From positions 672,001 to 736,000 of the forward strand of contig CM000434.1 of assembly GCA_000165345.1 (NCBI GenBank): a stretch of 64,000 nt of DNA, written 5' to 3'. The position numbers and the translations under genes were made by a program. Numbering within the stretch: position 1 is the stretch's first letter; every line of letters begins with the position of its first letter. The notes beneath the pieces were generated by a model. It was not told the DNA's origin, made no database searches, and worked only from the letters and a program-made list of their open reading frames with translations. This document shows, piece after piece, positions 36,692 through 50,915 of the stretch.

Positions 36692-36704
36692 TTTCCCGCC
36701 AAAA
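36692..36704. promoter_or_regulatory. Canonical E2F box TTTCCCGCCAAAA, the reverse complement of TTTTGGCGGGAAA, 30 bp from a TATACCGGTT element at 36661-36670; about 300 bp upstream of the next gene.
   Basis: Read directly: gctataccggtttgacagtagattaatcggaaatttcccgccaaaagtgac. Confidence 0.45.
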
Positions 36705-41775: not shown

Positions 41776-44700
41776 TTATTCCTCTATAAATTCTGAGAAT
41801 AACAACTCTTGATATTGTTGAAAATGATATTCAGAATTAAAGAAGTTCTCAATTAATGATGAATGATCCATTATTGTTTCAAAATGAATTGTGACTTCTC
41901 TTTCAAGCTCTAGAACCCAATCTTGAAAGAGTGGACATACTAATTTTCGAATCGAAATAAACTCCAAATCTTGGTTATTTTTAAATGTTGTAATTAGATT
42001 GTACCAAACAATTAATACCATTAAAATCTTCCATTTAATACATTTAGAGCATACTTGAAAATAAAGATATGAAATTTGATATAAGGAAATTTTAGTATTT
42101 ATTATTCCATTTTCAAATTGTTTTTTATCAAGTTTATTAACTTTTTTTTTGGAAAAGAAGGCACCAGAGTTAGAAGAAATACTTTTTGTTGAGTTAACTT
42201 TAATTTTATTGGAAAAAACAATATCAAATATCCCAAAAAGTAGATTTGTAATAATTGCAGGAAATGCAGAAATTATTTCATTGTTTCTTCGTTTATACAT
42301 ATAATTTAATATAATTTGTAGTCCAATAAAAAATAGTTTAGAATCTTGATTGAGAGAATTTTCATATATTAATAGAGAAATTTGATTTGAGAGCCCTTTA
42401 TAAATTTGAATTTGTTTGTCTTTGATTATTTTATTATCTAGAATAGGAAAATCTAGATGGTAAAAATGATCAAAATTATCCTGATACTTGACTTGAGTGA
42501 GTTTATGATCTGAATATGTTCCTAAATCGAAATAAATTCGATGAAAAATGAGTTGTTTTTTAGATAAGTCTGAAATTGATTCCAATAGATCAATTGCAAT
42601 AATTCTTGCATGATTTTGAAAGGTAACATTATGGATGAGCATGTTGGGAAAAGAAATAGAAAAGTCTGCAACTTTCAACTTCAATTTGTTTCCAAAAGCA
42701 ATAATGTGATCAATTGACTGAGAATAGGTGGTAATATCGGTATTAATAGAATCATAATTTCTTTTAGTTTTTGAAATATCCAAACAGCTTATAACTCTTG
42801 TAGAAACAAGCTCCAAAGCTTTGTCAGTATCAAAGTTTTTCTCAACAAGAAAAAAAAAGAACTTTTTGTGATCAGATGGAGATCTGTAAATAAGACCTGA
42901 TTCAACTCCCTTGAAAGAATAACTTCCTGAGACAATAAAAGGATCTTTATGAAATTTGTGAGTATTAGTAGAATTACTGTGAACTGAAATAAGTTGAAAA
43001 ATAGTATTTGGTATAAAATTTTGATTTTCACCACGGTTAAAAACCTGAAAAAAGCTATCTTTTCCATTGTTTGGAAATATTTTGAATCTGAAATTTTCTT
43101 CAAAGTTTGAATCATTATCATTAATAGAGTAAGTTTTGGATCCACATAAATTAGCATCTGAATCAAATAGAAAAAGCTGCGAGCTGATTCTTGTGGGACA
43201 TTTATTTGAGTGTGAGTCTGGAATCCAATTCTCAATGTTAACAACAATCCAAGAGTTTTCTTTTAGATAAATCATATTTTCAACTTTATGACGAGTACTC
43301 TTCAAAGGCAAAACTTTGTCGCAACTTTGAAGTTTATTTGATTCCACATTAACTAGCTTAATATATTGATTTTCATGGCCTTGAAGAGATAAAAAGTAAA
43401 GATGATCATAATCTTGGTAATTTTCAGTAAATTGGGTAATAATAGAATAAATTGGAAATTTTAATCTTTTAATATGGAGAATTTTGAGAAATTTTTCGTT
43501 TGTCTCAAGCAATTCTGTATATAAATAATCAGTCATTGATCCTAAAATAATACGATTTTTCCATATTTGATTATTATTAAAAATGTGTCTTCTTTGAGTT
43601 CCAATAACTTTCAAATTAAAAACTTCCTGAGAAGAAATATGAGATTTTAAATTAATAATAATTTTTTTGTATTTGGTTTGATTTGTTTGAAACTTTTCTT
43701 GAAATAAATCTTGTGTAAATTGAATTAAACTAAAAATACATAAGAATCCAAAACTTGTTGTAATATATATATTATCATGAAAATTATTGTCAAATTCAAT
43801 AGAAGTGATCATTCCAACCTCAGAATCAAGAAAATGGTTCAGGTTGAAGTTAGATTTAATATTCTTCAAAGGATTTTGTATTGATGATAAATTTGCAAAT
43901 ATTTGGCTATGAGGATCTCCAATTAGAGTTAATATTACATGAGAAGAATTATTTAATATTAATTTTTTGGATTCAAATGATGAAATAATAGGGATATAAG
44001 TTAATTCATCTTTAATATCAAAATGAAAAAGTTGAAAAGACTCGATTTTTAACTGAATTAATTTATGTCCTTGAGTAATAATCATTAAGTGATTATCATC
44101 AGCCATTTTAGCATACATAATTAAATCAGGATATTCCCATAAATCTTTTATATTCGGTTGAAAATGATCAATATGATTTTGATTTTCAAAAGCTTTAACT
44201 TGTTCAGAAATTCCCTGGTATAATAAAATACGAGATTCTGTAACCTGTAGCATTAAATTATGACATACTTTAACACATAAAATAGTTGAATGACCACTTA
44301 TTAAAAAACCATTAATTTGAATTTTTTTTAAATAATATTTATTTTCAGGAATGGATTCTTGCTTTATAAGTAAATCAATTTGGCTTTCAAGGAACTTTGA
44401 ATAAACAACCAAATACCTGTTTTTTTCGATGGGTATAATAAAAATTTCAAGTACTCCTTTTTTTAAAGAATCAAATTGGGCTATTGTGGAAATCTTTAAT
44501 GAATTTAAAAATATATATCTTAAAACAAAATCATATTGAAAATAATATCCACCTTTAATTTGATCAAAGCAACATTGATATCTTCTGGCTGCTAATATAA
44601 ATTTATTATCAAAACAATTTGGAGCCATAATAGCCTTTTCCATTTTCAAAATTTCAAGAATTTTTGGGGCAAAAATAAATTTTTGTTTAAAGTTTGGAAA

Positions 44701-46296
44701 AGTTATCATTTTAATTACACCAAAAGTTGAGCTTACTATAATACTTTTTACAATGAGACATTCTTCATTATAATACAAGTATGGAGAAACACTTGAAATA
44801 TCTGATAATTCAAAACTTGGAGAATTGATTTGTAGCTTTATTATATCAAATTCTTTCATCTTATTATCTTGAAACTGAAGATTTAATATAAACATTTCCA
44901 TACATTTTGAAGAAATGAAAAACTTAATTCTTTGTTCATTAACATTTTCTTCAATGATTACGACATCTCTTAAATCAATATAAATTTTATCTTGATAATA
45001 TTCATTTAAATTTACGGTCAAAATTTCCTCATTAAATTCTTCAGCATCTAATTCACATAAAATTAATTTTAATTCATTCTTTTCATAATTAAATATTAAC
45101 AATAATTTTCTAAATCTACATATACACCCAGAATTAATAAAGCCAGACTTATATCCACATGCACTTGCACATGCAAGCACCGGTATTGATTTGTCATTTA
45201 TAGACCTCCCCACACTTACGTGTATTGATTTCATGTGGATTACCGGTATATGTGTGCAAAAAATGCGCATTTGATATAGTTGGGGAGAAAATGACGTGGA
45301 TGAAGAGTTTATTAATGGAATCAGATTGGTTTCAGATATTGGTTTTTGATAATTATCTCTGGGATTAATTTGATTTTTAAGTAAGTTATTCCAGTCAAAA
45401 AAGAAAGTTTTTCCATATAGAATTTGGTTTTTTAAATCACTAAAGAGGCAAAATACAATTGGTTGGATTTTTGTGTAGTTTTTGCATGTTTTAGAAAATG
45501 AAATACATTCAAGTTTGTATTTAAGCGAGTCAAAATGGAAGAGATTTTCAGTCTGAATTTTCAACTCCAATTGTTCAATAATACCATTTTTGTTTACTAT
45601 TAGATTTGGAACAATAAGAAAAGAATAAGAAGAAATACAGACAATAATATATCCAGTATCATTGTCTATTGCAATACAATATTCTGGTATTAGCTTTTCA
45701 AAGATTATAGGGAAGGAGTTGGCAAATTTTATACTGTATTCATAAGGTCTAATAAAGTTAATTTTTGGAATTGTCTTATTCTTGGAGAGTGAAATCGAAA
45801 ACTCATTTTTTATTAAAAGCTGGTTGCTGAATATATTTGGTTCATTTTCTTTAATATTATGGTCCTTAATTATTGTATTAATACTTGTTGGAAATGCAAT
45901 AAAGGAATTTGGAATCTTATATGAGATATAAGGACAATCATGCTTGGAATGAGGAATAGAAACGCTTTTCAAAGAAAATAAATGAAGATTTTGAGAACAA
46001 TCCAATACTAAAATTAAATCAAATTGACTTTCTTGAATTGAGTATCTCCAAAAATCAACACAAGTATCTTCAAGTTTAACTGTTATTGATGCTAATTCTT
46101 CATTATTTGATGGAATGAATTCACTGAATACCGTTAATTCATTATATTTTAGTGTGGAAATATCAAGAAATTGTCTATTTTTGTTTAATGGGAAGAATTT
46201 TCCTGTAATTGTTTTTAATACTGAGGAGTCATTATAAAGAACATTTCCCAATATAGAACAGTTTGGATTCATGCTCCGATTTAAAGCTTTATACAA
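41776..46296 (-). CDS. Very large hypothetical protein, 1506 aa, Asn/Ile/Phe/Lys-rich with likely beta-rich regions; function unknown.
   Basis: Uninterrupted ORF. I cannot place it in a family by eye. The coding region around 45120-45300 carries a cluster of promoter-like boxes (see findings). Confidence 0.65.
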   Translation of the reverse strand: MYKALNRSMNPNCSILGNVLYNDSSVLKTITGKFFPLNKNRQFLDISTLKYNELTVFSEFIPSNNEELASITVKLEDTCVDFWRYSIQESQFDLILVLDCSQNLHLFSLKSVSIPHSKHDCPYISYKIPNSFIAFPTSINTIIKDHNIKENEPNIFSNQLLIKNEFSISLSKNKTIPKINFIRPYEYSIKFANSFPIIFEKLIPEYCIAIDNDTGYIIVCISSYSFLIVPNLIVNKNGIIEQLELKIQTENLFHFDSLKYKLECISFSKTCKNYTKIQPIVFCLFSDLKNQILYGKTFFFDWNNLLKNQINPRDNYQKPISETNLIPLINSSSTSFSPQLYQMRIFCTHIPVIHMKSIHVSVGRSINDKSIPVLACASACGYKSGFINSGCICRFRKLLLIFNYEKNELKLILCELDAEEFNEEILTVNLNEYYQDKIYIDLRDVVIIEENVNEQRIKFFISSKCMEMFILNLQFQDNKMKEFDIIKLQINSPSFELSDISSVSPYLYYNEECLIVKSIIVSSTFGVIKMITFPNFKQKFIFAPKILEILKMEKAIMAPNCFDNKFILAARRYQCCFDQIKGGYYFQYDFVLRYIFLNSLKISTIAQFDSLKKGVLEIFIIPIEKNRYLVVYSKFLESQIDLLIKQESIPENKYYLKKIQINGFLISGHSTILCVKVCHNLMLQVTESRILLYQGISEQVKAFENQNHIDHFQPNIKDLWEYPDLIMYAKMADDNHLMIITQGHKLIQLKIESFQLFHFDIKDELTYIPIISSFESKKLILNNSSHVILTLIGDPHSQIFANLSSIQNPLKNIKSNFNLNHFLDSEVGMITSIEFDNNFHDNIYITTSFGFLCIFSLIQFTQDLFQEKFQTNQTKYKKIIINLKSHISSQEVFNLKVIGTQRRHIFNNNQIWKNRIILGSMTDYLYTELLETNEKFLKILHIKRLKFPIYSIITQFTENYQDYDHLYFLSLQGHENQYIKLVNVESNKLQSCDKVLPLKSTRHKVENMIYLKENSWIVVNIENWIPDSHSNKCPTRISSQLFLFDSDANLCGSKTYSINDNDSNFEENFRFKIFPNNGKDSFFQVFNRGENQNFIPNTIFQLISVHSNSTNTHKFHKDPFIVSGSYSFKGVESGLIYRSPSDHKKFFFFLVEKNFDTDKALELVSTRVISCLDISKTKRNYDSINTDITTYSQSIDHIIAFGNKLKLKVADFSISFPNMLIHNVTFQNHARIIAIDLLESISDLSKKQLIFHRIYFDLGTYSDHKLTQVKYQDNFDHFYHLDFPILDNKIIKDKQIQIYKGLSNQISLLIYENSLNQDSKLFFIGLQIILNYMYKRRNNEIISAFPAIITNLLFGIFDIVFSNKIKVNSTKSISSNSGAFFSKKKVNKLDKKQFENGIINTKISLYQISYLYFQVCSKCIKWKILMVLIVWYNLITTFKNNQDLEFISIRKLVCPLFQDWVLELEREVTIHFETIMDHSSLIENFFNSEYHFQQYQELLFSEFIEE

Positions 46297-46654: not shown

Positions 46655-46891
46655 ATGGGTAAGGGTGGAAATGCTTGTAAGAGAAATCAATGTAGAGAAA
46701 GAAAGGTTGCTAATGGTGCTAAGGAGGGTAAGTCTCAGCTTAAAGTAAATGCTGAGGCAATGAGTTTGAAGTGTCAGATCTGCTTACAACCTTTTATGAA
46801 AGTTCAGACTGGGCCGTTACTTAAACAACATTGGGAAGCCAAACATCCAAAGAAGACTTTTCAAGAATGTTTTCCAGGGATAGAACTTTGA
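46655..46891 (+). CDS. Small protein of 78 aa with a basic N-terminus and a single C2H2 zinc finger (ZNF706/4F5-like architecture).
   Basis: CQICLQPF...LKQHWEAKHP fits C-x2-C-x12-H-x5-H. The size and layout match human ZNF706 (CTVCRTQMPDPKTFKQHFESKHPK). Confidence 0.5.
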   Translation: MGKGGNACKRNQCRERKVANGAKEGKSQLKVNAEAMSLKCQICLQPFMKVQTGPLLKQHWEAKHPKKTFQECFPGIEL

Positions 46892-47164: not shown

Positions 47165-48298
47165 CTAAGGAAAGTTAAAACTAATCATTTGAGCAATTTG
47201 TGAATTTGATGGATGAAGTAATTTGAAGATATCTTCATTTTCAGTGGGACTTATTATGTTATTATCAAGCCCTATTTGGTTAAGAGTAAATATTAGTGTT
47301 GCGGTAATTTGCATTTTTCTGAGGTAAGATACTATAACTGATGCAATTGATACAGTTTCATTTGTAACTCTTGTCCCAACAATCATTATTGGGAATATAT
47401 CCTTTGGATCTGGATTACTTTCTTCAAGTTCTTTGAACGATTTAATTGTTTCTTCAATTGGTAAATTAGAATAAATCAAATATTCATCCTCTATGGGAAT
47501 TTTGGATTCTGAATTATTTACATGAATAATTCTTACTTCATTATTACTTGCTGATTTTATTTTATTTGGAGTAAAATCCATAATAGTTTTTATTCCCAAA
47601 CTTTTAAGAATCTGAGGATGAACACTTTGAAAAACATTTCCAAGATAAATTTTATAAGTTTCACCCCAGCTGATAACAAGTGGATATTCTATTGAAGCAA
47701 TAATCTTTGATTTTAGATTCTGGGGGATGTTTTTTATTGATTTAATACTTGAAATACATTCGGCATCTATACTACAACATATATATGGAAATTCAAGACT
47801 AAATGAAGAATATCCATTTTTTAATAAGTAAATGGATTTAATTGATTGTATACATTTTTTCAAGTATTCCAATACTTCTCTTTGTGAGATTTCTAAATCA
47901 CTGGTATTTGTAAGTCTTCCTTCAAAGTCATAAATTATTACATGTTTTCTCTTTATTCCAATAATTTCAGAGCTTTGATTTCTATTGGATTCTGGAAATA
48001 TTCTTTTAACCCTATCTAAACTATTACATTCAATTGAGCCATTTATTTTAGTCCTTGATTTTATTATTTGATTTTTTGTTCTAATATCACAAATTACTAC
48101 TGGCTCATTATCAATAATGGAAGCTGAATTCTTTTCAATTTCTTTTAAATTCTTGCAAAGTAAGAGTTGACAAATATTAAATAACTTCTTGTTAGAGATT
48201 GGCTTACATTCCAGCTCCTTGCCTTTCTTAATAAGGCTAGCAACGTCTCTTGATTCATTCAAAAGTCGATTATATTCTATTGCTCTATGGTTCTCCAT
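47165..48298 (-). CDS. MAP-kinase-phosphatase-like pseudophosphatase: an N-terminal rhodanese/CH2 domain plus a dual-specificity phosphatase fold that lacks the catalytic Cys and Arg (MK-STYX-like).
   Basis: Rhodanese-like VVICDIRTKNQ...HVIIYDFEG. DUSP-like GIKTIMDFTPN (compare MKP GIKYILNVTPN) and IPIEDEYLIYSNLPIEE. The P-loop position reads IMIVGTRVTNETVS instead of VHCxxGxxRS, so no Cys is present. Confidence 0.6.
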   Translation of the reverse strand: MENHRAIEYNRLLNESRDVASLIKKGKELECKPISNKKLFNICQLLLCKNLKEIEKNSASIIDNEPVVICDIRTKNQIIKSRTKINGSIECNSLDRVKRIFPESNRNQSSEIIGIKRKHVIIYDFEGRLTNTSDLEISQREVLEYLKKCIQSIKSIYLLKNGYSSFSLEFPYICCSIDAECISSIKSIKNIPQNLKSKIIASIEYPLVISWGETYKIYLGNVFQSVHPQILKSLGIKTIMDFTPNKIKSASNNEVRIIHVNNSESKIPIEDEYLIYSNLPIEETIKSFKELEESNPDPKDIFPIMIVGTRVTNETVSIASVIVSYLRKMQITATLIFTLNQIGLDNNIISPTENEDIFKLLHPSNSQIAQMISFNFP

Positions 48299-49055
48299 CT
48301 TCTTTTTTTTATTTATATATAATAATTCTTTAAGAGTAAAATAAAAGGCTAGAATTGACTTCTCAGATGAATGAATGAGTAAATAAATAAATGTATAAAT
48401 ATAAATATATATATCACGTAATTACCTGCTTTATTTCTCCTTTTATTTTCTATAATATATATTCCACAATTTCTTGTTTTTTTTTTATTTAGGAATTAAT
48501 GATTGTAAATTCTTCCATATAATAACTTGTTATATTAATAGTATAATTAATAATAATCACTTTATTTTCCAGCTAAACTTCCAACTTTTGATTTAATCTT
48601 ATTTTCATTAAAAAAAAATTAAAATCTCTAATATATTTTATTTCTCGTTCAATATCTTGACAGGAAATTTTTACTTAATATAATATTAATATTGCGAGAC
48701 GAGACACGTACACATATAAAAAAATGCATGCAAATTTGGTTAACAATAATTATGTTTATATATTTTTTAAAAACTTTAATTGGGGGGTGGAGGGGTGTTA
48801 CAGAAAAGGCGGGAAATATTCTTTAAGTCAAAAAAAATTGTATACCGGCATTTGCATGCAAAAAAAAAAAAAAAATGACATATTAATAGGTATTCATACG
48901 AAAAGGTAAATAAATTATATGATTTAACTTCCTACTTATATGTGAAATTTCTCACATCTATTATTTAATTAAATGAATAATTATATCCAATACATAAACT
49001 CAAATGATTCAAATATGAATTCAATATACACCTGAATTAATAATTAAAACATAAT

Positions 49056-50915
49056 TTAAGCTAACAATGGGGTAGAAAGATCTGATGAAGTCTGGACTGA
49101 TACAACCATTCCTTTGTTTATCTTTGAATTTGGAGAGAGAGAAAAAGAGTCACCTCCTTCTTGTTGAGAAAGAGCTGCGGAAATTAAAGTAGAAGAACCA
49201 GTTGAATCTAAATTATTAGTTGTCTTTGAATTACTTTCATGATTACCTGAAATTAAAAAACCATTCAAACTTTCTCCTCCTTCATTTTCATTAAATGTTC
49301 CATTCATAAACATGTTTCTTTGAGATGAATTTCCGATACAAGTATTATTATTATTTGCACTTAAAGAGGTATCTTGGTTTTGAAATAGAGGAAAATTGTG
49401 GATAAGAGAACCCGTCATGAAGTTGGGATGTCCTGTAATAATGTTCCCGCCAACTCCAGTGATAGTTAATCCAGCTAAATGGTTTAAATACCCAAGATGA
49501 TTGAAAAAATTGAATTGGTTTTGAAAGGCAATTTGGTGAAAAGTTTGACTCAAAAAATTGTTCAAATCTGGCCCAAAAATTCCGTTACAATTTGGAGAGA
49601 GTAAATCTGGGAAAGAAGAGGGAGGGCTACTAGTTGAATTAAAATGGGTTGTTGGCACGTGATTTTGTATTCCAGGTGGTAATTGATTTGGGAAGATAGA
49701 CCCCATGAGAGTAAAGTGGGTTCCCATTCCTACTCCTCCTAGACCTGTTCCTGCTATTCCTCCAATTCCTCCTGTTCCTCCAATTCCACCTGTTCCTCCA
49801 ATTCCACCTGTTCCTCCAATTCCTCCTGTTCCTCCAATTCCTCCGGTTCCTCCCATTCCTCCTGTTCCTCCCATTCCTCCTATTCCACCCATCCCTGCTA
49901 ATCCCATTGTTCCTGCTGCTCCTGTTCCACTTAAAAATGGGTTCTGCTCATTTATACTAGAAATTACACGATTAATCATTGTGTTGAATCCATCGATATC
50001 AGAAGAAAATTGCTTTTTCAGACGACTATTATTGTTAATTCCATTTTCACTTTCATTGTTAAAATCAGTAGATGAAGTAATATTTGGAATAGGTGGTATT
50101 TGAATATTGCTAAGAAAATTATTACTTGAGCTTTTCTTTATGTGATTACTATTTGTACTAGAAATACTGACTTCTGGCTCATTCTTTGTTGTAGATTCTT
50201 CAGTAATTGAGATTCCATTTTCGATTCCTTCTCCTGCTCCCACTCCTCCTACTCCTGCTCCTCCTACTTCTCCATTATTACCACTACTATTCCCACCAGA
50301 ATTTGTGATAATTGATAATGGTGATAGTATTCTGGATTCATTTGGTGAGTTATGATTACTATTATTTAAGATTCCAAAGTTAGGCTGTGATTCGATTTGA
50401 AATTGTTCTCTAAGATTATTGAGATCTGAATATTTCTCAGTTTTAGTTAATTTAATTGGTTGTTGAGGAGATGTACAAGATATATTACTCATAGTAGGAG
50501 ATTGTGTTTGAGCTAAAGTGTATAATGGAACAATACTTGGTTCAGATATATTTTTATTATTAGAATTGCCACTATTTTTTGGTTTATTCTTCTTTTGTAA
50601 AGCTTTTCTACTTTCATGAAGTGCACTATAATATTCGATTAATTCTTTTTTGGCTGGATCTAAAATTGGAGGATCATGAAGATCATCCGGTACTACACCT
50701 TTTACATCGATATAGTCAAGAACCGCTCTAGAAAGTAAAGATGCTGCTTCTTTACCATATTTAGCTTCACTAAAAGAACATTGTCTTCTACTAGGTTTTG
50801 TTGATTCATGAGTCCAAAAAACTACTCTCCATTCTTTTTTTCCACCTGGTTTATATACTCTTTCTCCCCTTGCTCTTGTTGGAGTTCTATTCTTATTAAT
50901 TAAGGAAGTTGTCAT
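49056..50915 (-). CDS. AP2-domain (ApiAP2) DNA-binding protein of 619 aa with low-complexity Asn/Ser/Gly regions and a (GGTGGI)n hexapeptide array.
   Basis: The N-terminal RGERVYKPGGKKEWRVVFWTHESTKPSRRQCSFSEAKYGKEAASLLSRAVLDYI matches the AP2 domain pattern (RGV..kgg.W.a.i..ngk....sF....yG.eeA..a...A). Confidence 0.8.
   Translation of the reverse strand: MTTSLINKNRTPTRARGERVYKPGGKKEWRVVFWTHESTKPSRRQCSFSEAKYGKEAASLLSRAVLDYIDVKGVVPDDLHDPPILDPAKKELIEYYSALHESRKALQKKNKPKNSGNSNNKNISEPSIVPLYTLAQTQSPTMSNISCTSPQQPIKLTKTEKYSDLNNLREQFQIESQPNFGILNNSNHNSPNESRILSPLSIITNSGGNSSGNNGEVGGAGVGGVGAGEGIENGISITEESTTKNEPEVSISSTNSNHIKKSSSNNFLSNIQIPPIPNITSSTDFNNESENGINNNSRLKKQFSSDIDGFNTMINRVISSINEQNPFLSGTGAAGTMGLAGMGGIGGMGGTGGMGGTGGIGGTGGIGGTGGIGGTGGIGGTGGIGGIAGTGLGGVGMGTHFTLMGSIFPNQLPPGIQNHVPTTHFNSTSSPPSSFPDLLSPNCNGIFGPDLNNFLSQTFHQIAFQNQFNFFNHLGYLNHLAGLTITGVGGNIITGHPNFMTGSLIHNFPLFQNQDTSLSANNNNTCIGNSSQRNMFMNGTFNENEGGESLNGFLISGNHESNSKTTNNLDSTGSSTLISAALSQQEGGDSFSLSPNSKINKGMVVSVQTSSDLSTPLLA
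49740..49905. repeat. In-frame 18-nt minisatellite (CCTGTTCCTCCAATTCCA-like, about 8-9 copies) encoding (GGTGGI/M)n in the AP2 protein.
   Basis: Read directly. Copies vary at one or two positions (cct/cca/ccg/ccc). Confidence 0.85.

Follow-up and report, generated by a model that had tools for sequence, protein, structure and literature searches.

Does a gene that is counted among the phosphatases of Cryptosporidium parvum still encode a working enzyme? The question is raised by a gene at 47165..48298 on the minus strand of the window, i.e., the whole 64,000-nucleotide (nt) stretch of DNA analysed here (positions 672,001 to 736,000 of the forward strand of contig CM000434.1, GenBank assembly GCA_000165345.1), whose coordinates are used throughout. 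Databases and a review of apicomplexan phosphatomes (PMC8949495) count this gene among just five dual-specificity phosphatases (DUSPs) of C. parvum. An earlier note on the same DNA had read its product as an MK-STYX-like pseudophosphatase, in which a rhodanese/CH2 domain is followed by a DUSP fold whose P-loop has neither the nucleophilic Cys nor the Arg. That reading is borne out: profile, profile-profile and fold evidence confirm the architecture, with STYXL1 (MK-STYX) as the best PDB match by sequence profile and by structure, and the gene is a maintained non-enzyme under purifying selection, not a decaying one.

The translation of 47165..48298 (minus strand) is a 100% match to C. parvum Iowa II EAK89940.1, which carries the database name "dual specificity phosphatase, signal peptide", and the C. 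hominis counterpart has 99% identity to it. Because Table S1 of the phosphatome review (PMC8949495) gives the identical product name to cgd6_3100, the gene is very probably cgd6_3100. Orthologues of 371-402 amino acids (aa) were found in C. tyzzeri, C. meleagridis, Cryptosporidium chipmunk genotype I, C. ubiquitum, C. canis, C. felis, C. bovis, C. xiaoi, C. muris, C. andersoni and C. serpentis. The C. felis orthologue is named 'MAPK phosphatase 1' in databases (MAPK, mitogen-activated protein kinase). The window has a composition of ~30% G+C, with long open reading frames (ORFs) that lack introns.

Domain architecture

A 13-sequence profile combines the close orthologues with sequences from C. 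bovis, C. muris, Chromera, a ciliate and one transcript. Searched against the PDB, this profile matched STYXL1 chains at 1.4e-9 and 1e-8, with alignments that run from the rhodanese domain through the linker into the beginning of the DUSP domain. Further matches were to the rhodanese domains of DUSP16 (3.6e-9), DUSP10 (7e-6) and DUSP6 (1.7e-5) and, more weakly, to the catalytic domains of DUSP9 and DUSP6 (~0.006-0.03). When the C-terminal half alone was used as a profile, all meaningful matches were DUSPs, and hhalign aligned it to a DUSP9 catalytic-domain fragment with a probability of 94.7% (E 6e-8). The ciliate member on its own, in a plain phmmer search, matched DUSP1 (3.9e-9) and DUSP4 (1.2e-8), and therefore provides a transitive link from the family to the DUSPs.

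The fold points the same way. AlphaFold2, given the 13-sequence alignment, produced a model with a mean predicted local distance difference test score (pLDDT) of 79.4 and a predicted template modelling score (pTM) of 0.80. In a Foldseek search of the PDB, the top rank went to STYXL1, in structures of the bovine sperm axoneme (9fqr, 4.7e-10) and of mouse radial spoke 3 (9d2f, 1.3e-9), with ~350 aligned columns. The next ranks were taken by the catalytic domains of DUSP1/4/5/7/8/9/10 and the rhodanese domain of DUSP16.

Several results weigh against the reading of the protein as an inactive MKP-type phosphatase. A Pfam search of the single window protein found neither a Rhodanese nor a DSPc match, even at E<=10. 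The earlier note had held that the lack of a significant DSPc hit would refute its reading, and on the single sequence that is literally what was found. AlphaFold2 on nine close orthologues gave an unusable model (pLDDT 43.5), and the structure model described above depends on the 13-sequence alignment. No Plasmodium or Toxoplasma protein appeared at E<=1e-3 when the orthologue profile was run exhaustively with HMMER against 1.84 billion representative proteins.

That search returned only six proteins at the same threshold, and the relatives from outside Cryptosporidium were one protein of Chromera velia, one of the ciliate Pseudocohnilembus persalinus and one EukProt transcript; two more word-indexed homologue searches, one of them with low-complexity sequence trimmed, added no further relatives. 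A phmmer search of the single protein against the PDB likewise had no matches, and because Pfam and phmmer were both null on the single sequence, more sensitive methods were applied. Pfam Rhodanese was matched by three of the nine orthologues (best E 1.2e-5). We regard the architecture as confirmed because the profile, hhalign, AlphaFold2 and Foldseek results agree despite the single-sequence null. The layout of the gene and its product is as follows.

47165..48298, minus strand: complete, intron-less gene for the 377-aa MAPK phosphatase (MKP)-like pseudophosphatase, a single ATG-to-stop ORF with its stop codon at 47165-47167
48209..48298, minus strand: N-terminal segment, aa 1-30, hydrophilic and charged, with a predicted helix at aa 9-24 (pLDDT 77-85)
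47771..48208, minus strand: non-catalytic rhodanese/CH2 domain of the MAPK-binding type, aa 31-176
48002..48013, minus strand: R96-V-K98-R99, a possible remnant of a kinase-interaction motif (KIM), with K98-R99 on the KIM Arg-Arg of DUSP16
47684..47770, minus strand: inter-domain linker, aa 177-205
47168..47683, minus strand: DUSP-fold domain, aa 206-377, containing IYLGN, GIKTIMDFTPN (47564-47596), the degenerate P-loop and HPSNxQIAQMISF
47606-47656, minus strand: H2B-like segment ETYKIYLGNVFQSVHPQ, aa 215-231, the first strand and helix of the DUSP fold
47354..47380, minus strand: degenerate P-loop V307-G308-T-R-V311-T-N-E314-T315, which sits on H-C-x-x-G-x-x-R-S

The rhodanese domain ends in the FPxxC typical of MKPs, whose Cys (C174) is invariant in 13/13 sequences. 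The linker ends in EYP, running into the LVIS of the DUSP domain, and this is the counterpart of the (Y/F)PVEI found before the catalytic domain of MKPs and STYXL1. At the C-terminus, HPSNxQIAQMISF would be the counterpart of the DUSP motif PNxxFxxQLxxFE, an assignment made by our own judgement rather than by a tool. An insertion of ~18 residues lies ahead of this motif and the last DUSP helix. The N-terminal segment can be aligned in Chromera and in P0011. We rejected the signal peptide of the GenBank product name, which looks wrong because the N-terminus (MENHRAIEYNRLLNESRDVASLIKKGKELECK) is charged and predicted to be helical, without a hydrophobic core.

Two other candidate identities were also set aside. 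Spc24 was the sole Pfam match of the single protein and was sub-threshold (E 0.086). Histone H2B was the top PDB match of the 9-close-orthologue profile, all of whose PDB matches were marginal (E 0.02-0.9 for H2B), and it arose from the likeness of ETYKIYLGNVFQSVHPQ to H2B ETYKIYIFKVLKQVHPDI. We judged this likeness coincidental because aa 215-231 form the first strand-helix of the DUSP fold.

Lost catalytic residues

Two programs, hmmsearch and hhalign, independently produced the same ungapped alignment over the P-loop, in which I-M-I-V-G-T-R-V-T-N-E-T-V-S-I lies on V-L-V-H-C-L-A-G-V-S-R-S-V-T-V. The signature residues are replaced as His to V307, Cys to G308, Gly to V311, Arg to E314 and Ser to T315. 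Since HCxxGxxRS aligns without gaps on V307-T315, neither the nucleophilic Cys nor the P-loop Gly nor the Arg is present, which upholds what the earlier note had said of the Cys and Arg. The structure prediction it had proposed as a check agrees: the 13-sequence model has a strand (304-308), a loop and a helix (313-327) at this position, the shape expected of a P-loop of the protein tyrosine phosphatase (PTP) type. The two key columns differ among family members as follows.

C. parvum, C. hominis and C. meleagridis: Cys column G, Arg column E
Chipmunk genotype I and C. bovis: Cys column S, Arg column E
C. felis: Cys column S, Arg column K
C. ubiquitum, C. canis and two further sequences: Cys column T, Arg column E
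C. muris: Cys column A, Arg column S
Chromera velia (P0012, Cvel_24457): Cys column D (Asp), Arg column S
Pseudocohnilembus persalinus, the ciliate (P0013, KRX10958.1): Cys column C, so the P-loop Cys is kept, Arg column I (Ile)

The Arg column is thus E, K, S or I and never R, the Cys column is G, S, T or A in all Cryptosporidium examined, and the P-loop Gly column is Val, Ile or Leu in the family. No orthologue (0) has both Cys and Arg. Conservation of the substitution across species, which the earlier note had wanted checked, holds in the sense that the loss extends to Chromera and to every Cryptosporidium orthologue that was found.

The general-acid Asp of active enzymes falls on Y273, a variable column (Y/N/C/D), but the alignment of this loop is insecure and acidic residues (270-272) are adjacent. 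The loop has a pLDDT of <50 and is the least conserved segment (0.50 identity), and in the ciliate member the general-acid position is Lys. In the rhodanese domain, the strand HVIIYD is followed by FEGRLT and aligned to VVVYDQSS of DUSP16. There is no Cdc25-type CX5R here, because D124 stands at the Cdc25 Cys position as it does in MKP CH2 domains. To judge from the sequence, the PTP-type catalytic elements are all missing in the C. parvum protein, and we predict with high confidence that catalysis is excluded.

Conservation, selection and the surrounding locus

The ratio of nonsynonymous to synonymous substitution rates (dN/dS) is given here for the gene and its neighbours in each of two comparisons.

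Pseudophosphatase gene: 0.127 vs C. meleagridis, 0.081 vs C. ubiquitum
Neighbouring ~1500-aa gene: 0.22 vs C. meleagridis, 0.25 vs C. ubiquitum
Neighbouring low-complexity gene: 0.24 vs C. meleagridis, 0.16 vs C. ubiquitum
zf-met2 gene: 0.066 vs C. meleagridis, 0.005 vs C. ubiquitum

Within the protein, identity is 0.80 in the dead P-loop strand and loop and 0.83 in the helix behind it, against a whole-protein average of 0.74. The ORF is uninterrupted and its length kept across >15 Cryptosporidium species. The locus order is common to C. parvum, C. meleagridis, C. ubiquitum and C. felis: a low-complexity protein of 447-619 aa, the pseudophosphatase gene, a zf-met2 mini-protein (a gene not called at the C. 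felis locus) and a ~1500-aa protein. Because synteny is kept across species and selection is purifying (dN/dS 0.08-0.13), we regard the product as a working non-enzyme.

The neighbours themselves are varied. The zf-met2 gene (46655-46891, plus strand) adjoins the pseudophosphatase gene on the opposite strand, tail-to-tail with the 3' ends facing. Its 78-aa product has a SERF-like N-terminus, contains a zf-met2 zinc-binding domain (Pfam 3.5e-17) and is extremely conserved, with 99% identity to C. ubiquitum. Beyond it, a 1506-aa ORF (41776-46296, minus strand) has no Pfam domain and evolves fast, with dN/dS of 0.22-0.25 and 35% identity to C. felis. Its mechanical call begins at TTG, but an ATG further downstream is probably the real start codon, as the orthologues are 1494-1525 aa long. 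On the upstream side lies a 619-aa ORF (49056-50915, minus strand) which is low-complexity and has no Pfam match; the length of this protein by species is 619, 599, 528 or 447 aa. It contains an 18-nt tandem repeat at 49744-49904 (7.7 copies, 93% match) that encodes GTGGIGG runs and yields a spurious mirror ORF of PPIPPV repeats at 49705-50103 on the plus strand.

Two short motifs lie upstream of the pseudophosphatase gene. The palindrome TGCATGCA, which we take to be an apicomplexan AP2-type motif, occurs 11 times in the window (0.55 expected), and its copies at 48725-48732 and 48853-48860 are 434 and 562 nt upstream of the ATG. In C. meleagridis, C. ubiquitum and C. felis, the sequence upstream of the orthologue likewise contains a GCATGC core. 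The E2F-like TTTCCCGCC occurs twice in the window (0.09 expected), at 48808-48816 (minus strand) and 36692-36700 (plus strand), both intergenic and upstream of genes. The first of these, 518 nt upstream, would fit a cell-cycle role, but its lack of conservation, even in C. meleagridis, led us to drop it.

Mode of action and comparison with known proteins

What, then, does the protein do? We infer, with good though not full confidence, that it is a catalytically inactive member of the MKP architecture which works non-catalytically, by binding. Non-catalytic action is the most likely because selection is purifying and the strand and helix of the dead P-loop are among the best-conserved parts. 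A protein that pairs a non-catalytic rhodanese/CH2 domain with a DUSP fold in which the HCX5R loop now reads V-G-T-R-V-T-N-E-T could form no cysteinyl-phosphate intermediate, and its old pocket could probably not hold phosphate at all, given Glu instead of the P-loop Arg and Val instead of the Gly. A STYX-type phosphate trap therefore seems unlikely. The earlier note's suggestion that the protein might sequester a phospho-substrate fares badly for this reason, since Glu stands at the Arg position, unlike in Arg-retaining MK-STYX (PMC8907265). The MKP scaffold would rather bind and position, or sequester, a partner protein, and a MAPK that docks on the rhodanese domain is a candidate for this partner. 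A docking or scaffold role is our best guess, with precedents in STYXL1, a structural or adaptor subunit, and in Plasmodium MKP1, which influences how the cell cycle progresses.

A narrower version of this explanation, to which we give a real but clearly minor chance, is a strict MAPK-docking regulator, in which a KIM-like basic patch on the rhodanese domain binds a Cryptosporidium MAPK, with the dead DUSP domain as a shield or anchor that would leave the kinase phosphorylated. The alignment of K98-R99 on the Arg-Arg of the DUSP16 KIM speaks for it, as does the fact that the rhodanese domain is nearest to the MAPK-binding domains of DUSP16, DUSP10 and DUSP6; STYX and MK-STYX are also reported as modulators of the MAPK pathway (PMC8622459). 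Counting against it, the basic pair is confined to the intestinal clade of Cryptosporidium; C. bovis (VISAF), C. muris (VKENV), Chromera and the ciliate all lack it, so it does not define the family. We think it unlikely that the protein is instead an alveolate orthologue of metazoan STYXL1 with a microtubule role (radial-spoke or CCT-tubulin-folding cofactor) and not a MAPK role. The top rank of STYXL1 is inflated: it is favoured in whole-chain comparisons because it is the sole two-domain target among the matches, which include no full-length active MKP structure. For the rhodanese domain alone, DUSP16 scores 39.0 bits vs 36.7 for STYXL1. We do not claim specific STYXL1 orthology because the ciliate member, which is the least diverged, prefers active DUSP1 and DUSP4 (~1e-8) to STYXL1 (0.0087) by six orders of magnitude. 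STYXL1 also keeps the Arg, which the Cryptosporidium, Chromera and ciliate family does not. Cryptosporidium is not known to have a flagellum or axoneme at any stage, so a radial-spoke-3 role cannot apply to its protein. We rate just as low the broader proposal that alveolates at large (ciliate, chromerid, Cryptosporidium) share an ancient family of rhodanese-DUSP pseudoenzymes orthologous to metazoan STYXL1. If it were true, retention under strong constraint in a flagellum-less organism would mean that the ancestral core job of STYXL1 was not axonemal, with CCT/tubulin folding or a cell-cycle adaptor as one alternative role, and it would supply the alveolate counterpart lacking in a Tetrahymena radial-spoke study, which reported no STYXL1 orthologue (PMC12399478).

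The two remaining explanations do without a binding role. That the protein is still an enzyme, i.e., a low-activity or unconventional phosphatase or some other hydrolase acting, for example, via Ser/Thr at the Cys position, is very improbable. Its database names ('dual specificity phosphatase' or 'putative MAPK phosphatase 1') are automatic and have no experimental support. The old P-loop is indeed well conserved, and PMC8949495 describes PfMKP1 as possibly of 'low activity', but the nucleophile position is Gly in C. parvum, C. hominis and C. meleagridis and Ala in C. muris, which leaves no side chain for the purpose. Moreover, Glu, Lys or Ser stands in place of the Arg, the P-loop Gly has given way to Val, Ile or Leu, and the general acid does not appear to be conserved. 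A functionless product of a decaying gene or mis-called ORF might be suspected because Pfam has no match and because homologues are scarce even in very large databases (6 representatives at E<=1e-3). This explanation is effectively refuted by a dN/dS of ~0.1, and the ORF intact at its kept length in >15 species, the conserved synteny and the confidently predicted two-domain fold leave it a negligible chance.

If enzyme status is ruled out, the phosphatase inventory of C. parvum is corrected and the protein is removed from the conventional active-site drug targets. It would then likely serve as an adaptor in signalling or the cell cycle of a parasite whose set of phosphatases is very small, built on an MKP scaffold whose catalytic residues were lost long ago in alveolates while the protein was retained. 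It also adds a protist example to a mostly metazoan pseudophosphatase literature. Our literature search found cgd6_3100 in the main text of no paper, and no paper on this Cryptosporidium protein or its pseudo-enzyme status. The Cryptosporidium protein is thus unstudied, but MKP-type pseudophosphatases are a kind already known; specialists would expect the finding rather than be surprised by it, because the concept is established (STYX, STYXL1, PfMKP1).

With the active MKPs (DUSP6/MKP-3, DUSP9, DUSP16/MKP-7, DUSP10/MKP-5, DUSP1, DUSP4), the window protein shares the N-terminal non-catalytic rhodanese/CH2 domain and the C-terminal DUSP (PTP-type) fold. It differs from them in having no HCX5R and no P-loop Gly, in a general-acid Asp that was not found on its insecurely aligned loop, in a KIM that is at best vestigial and in the insertion of ~18 residues before the last helix. 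It is therefore predicted not to dephosphorylate the pThr/pTyr of MAPKs. Cdc25 and the catalytic rhodaneses differ in having a CX5R loop, which the window protein lacks, and Cdc25 matched only at E 0.008-0.09.

Within the Apicomplexa, the nearest parallel by description is PfMKP1 (PF3D7_1305500, 'atypical MAPK phosphatase'). PMC8949495 describes it as a rhodanese plus DUSP-like protein whose catalytic residues are poorly conserved, of 'low activity or pseudo-phosphatase', and as needed for timely pre-S to S/M progression, and PMC10317984 cites it as a Plasmodium pseudophosphatase. By these descriptions, the two proteins have in common a rhodanese domain, a DUSP-like region and degenerate catalytic residues, whereas PfMKP1 is 771 aa long and the window protein 377 aa. 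In the table of the phosphatome review, the C. parvum cell of the PfMKP1 row is blank and cgd6_3100 is filed under plain DSPs (PMC8949495). Neither PF3D7_1305500 nor TGME49_294570 turned up at E<=1e-3 in the HMMER search with the orthologue profile.

Among pseudophosphatases, STYX is a single DUSP domain with no rhodanese domain before it, and it has kept the P-loop Arg that phospho-binding requires. STYXL1 is closer, with the MKP architecture and both the catalytic His and Cys substituted. Its signature changes are His to Phe and Cys to Ser only, with the P-loop Arg kept (FSX5R) as the basis of its proposed phospho-binding (PMC8907265), whereas the window protein has His to Val and Cys to Gly, together with Glu for the Arg and Val for the P-loop Gly, and the two are only ~14% identical in sequence. 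In mammals, STYXL1 serves as a structural subunit in the stalk of radial spoke 3, where it clamps a CFAP91 helix with MORN5 (bioRxiv 10.1101/2025.05.19.654877), and PMC10761714 reports it as a CCT cofactor; an association with G3BP is also known from the literature. Specific orthology to STYXL1 appears unsupported, and the resemblance of the Cryptosporidium protein to MK-STYX is one of kind.
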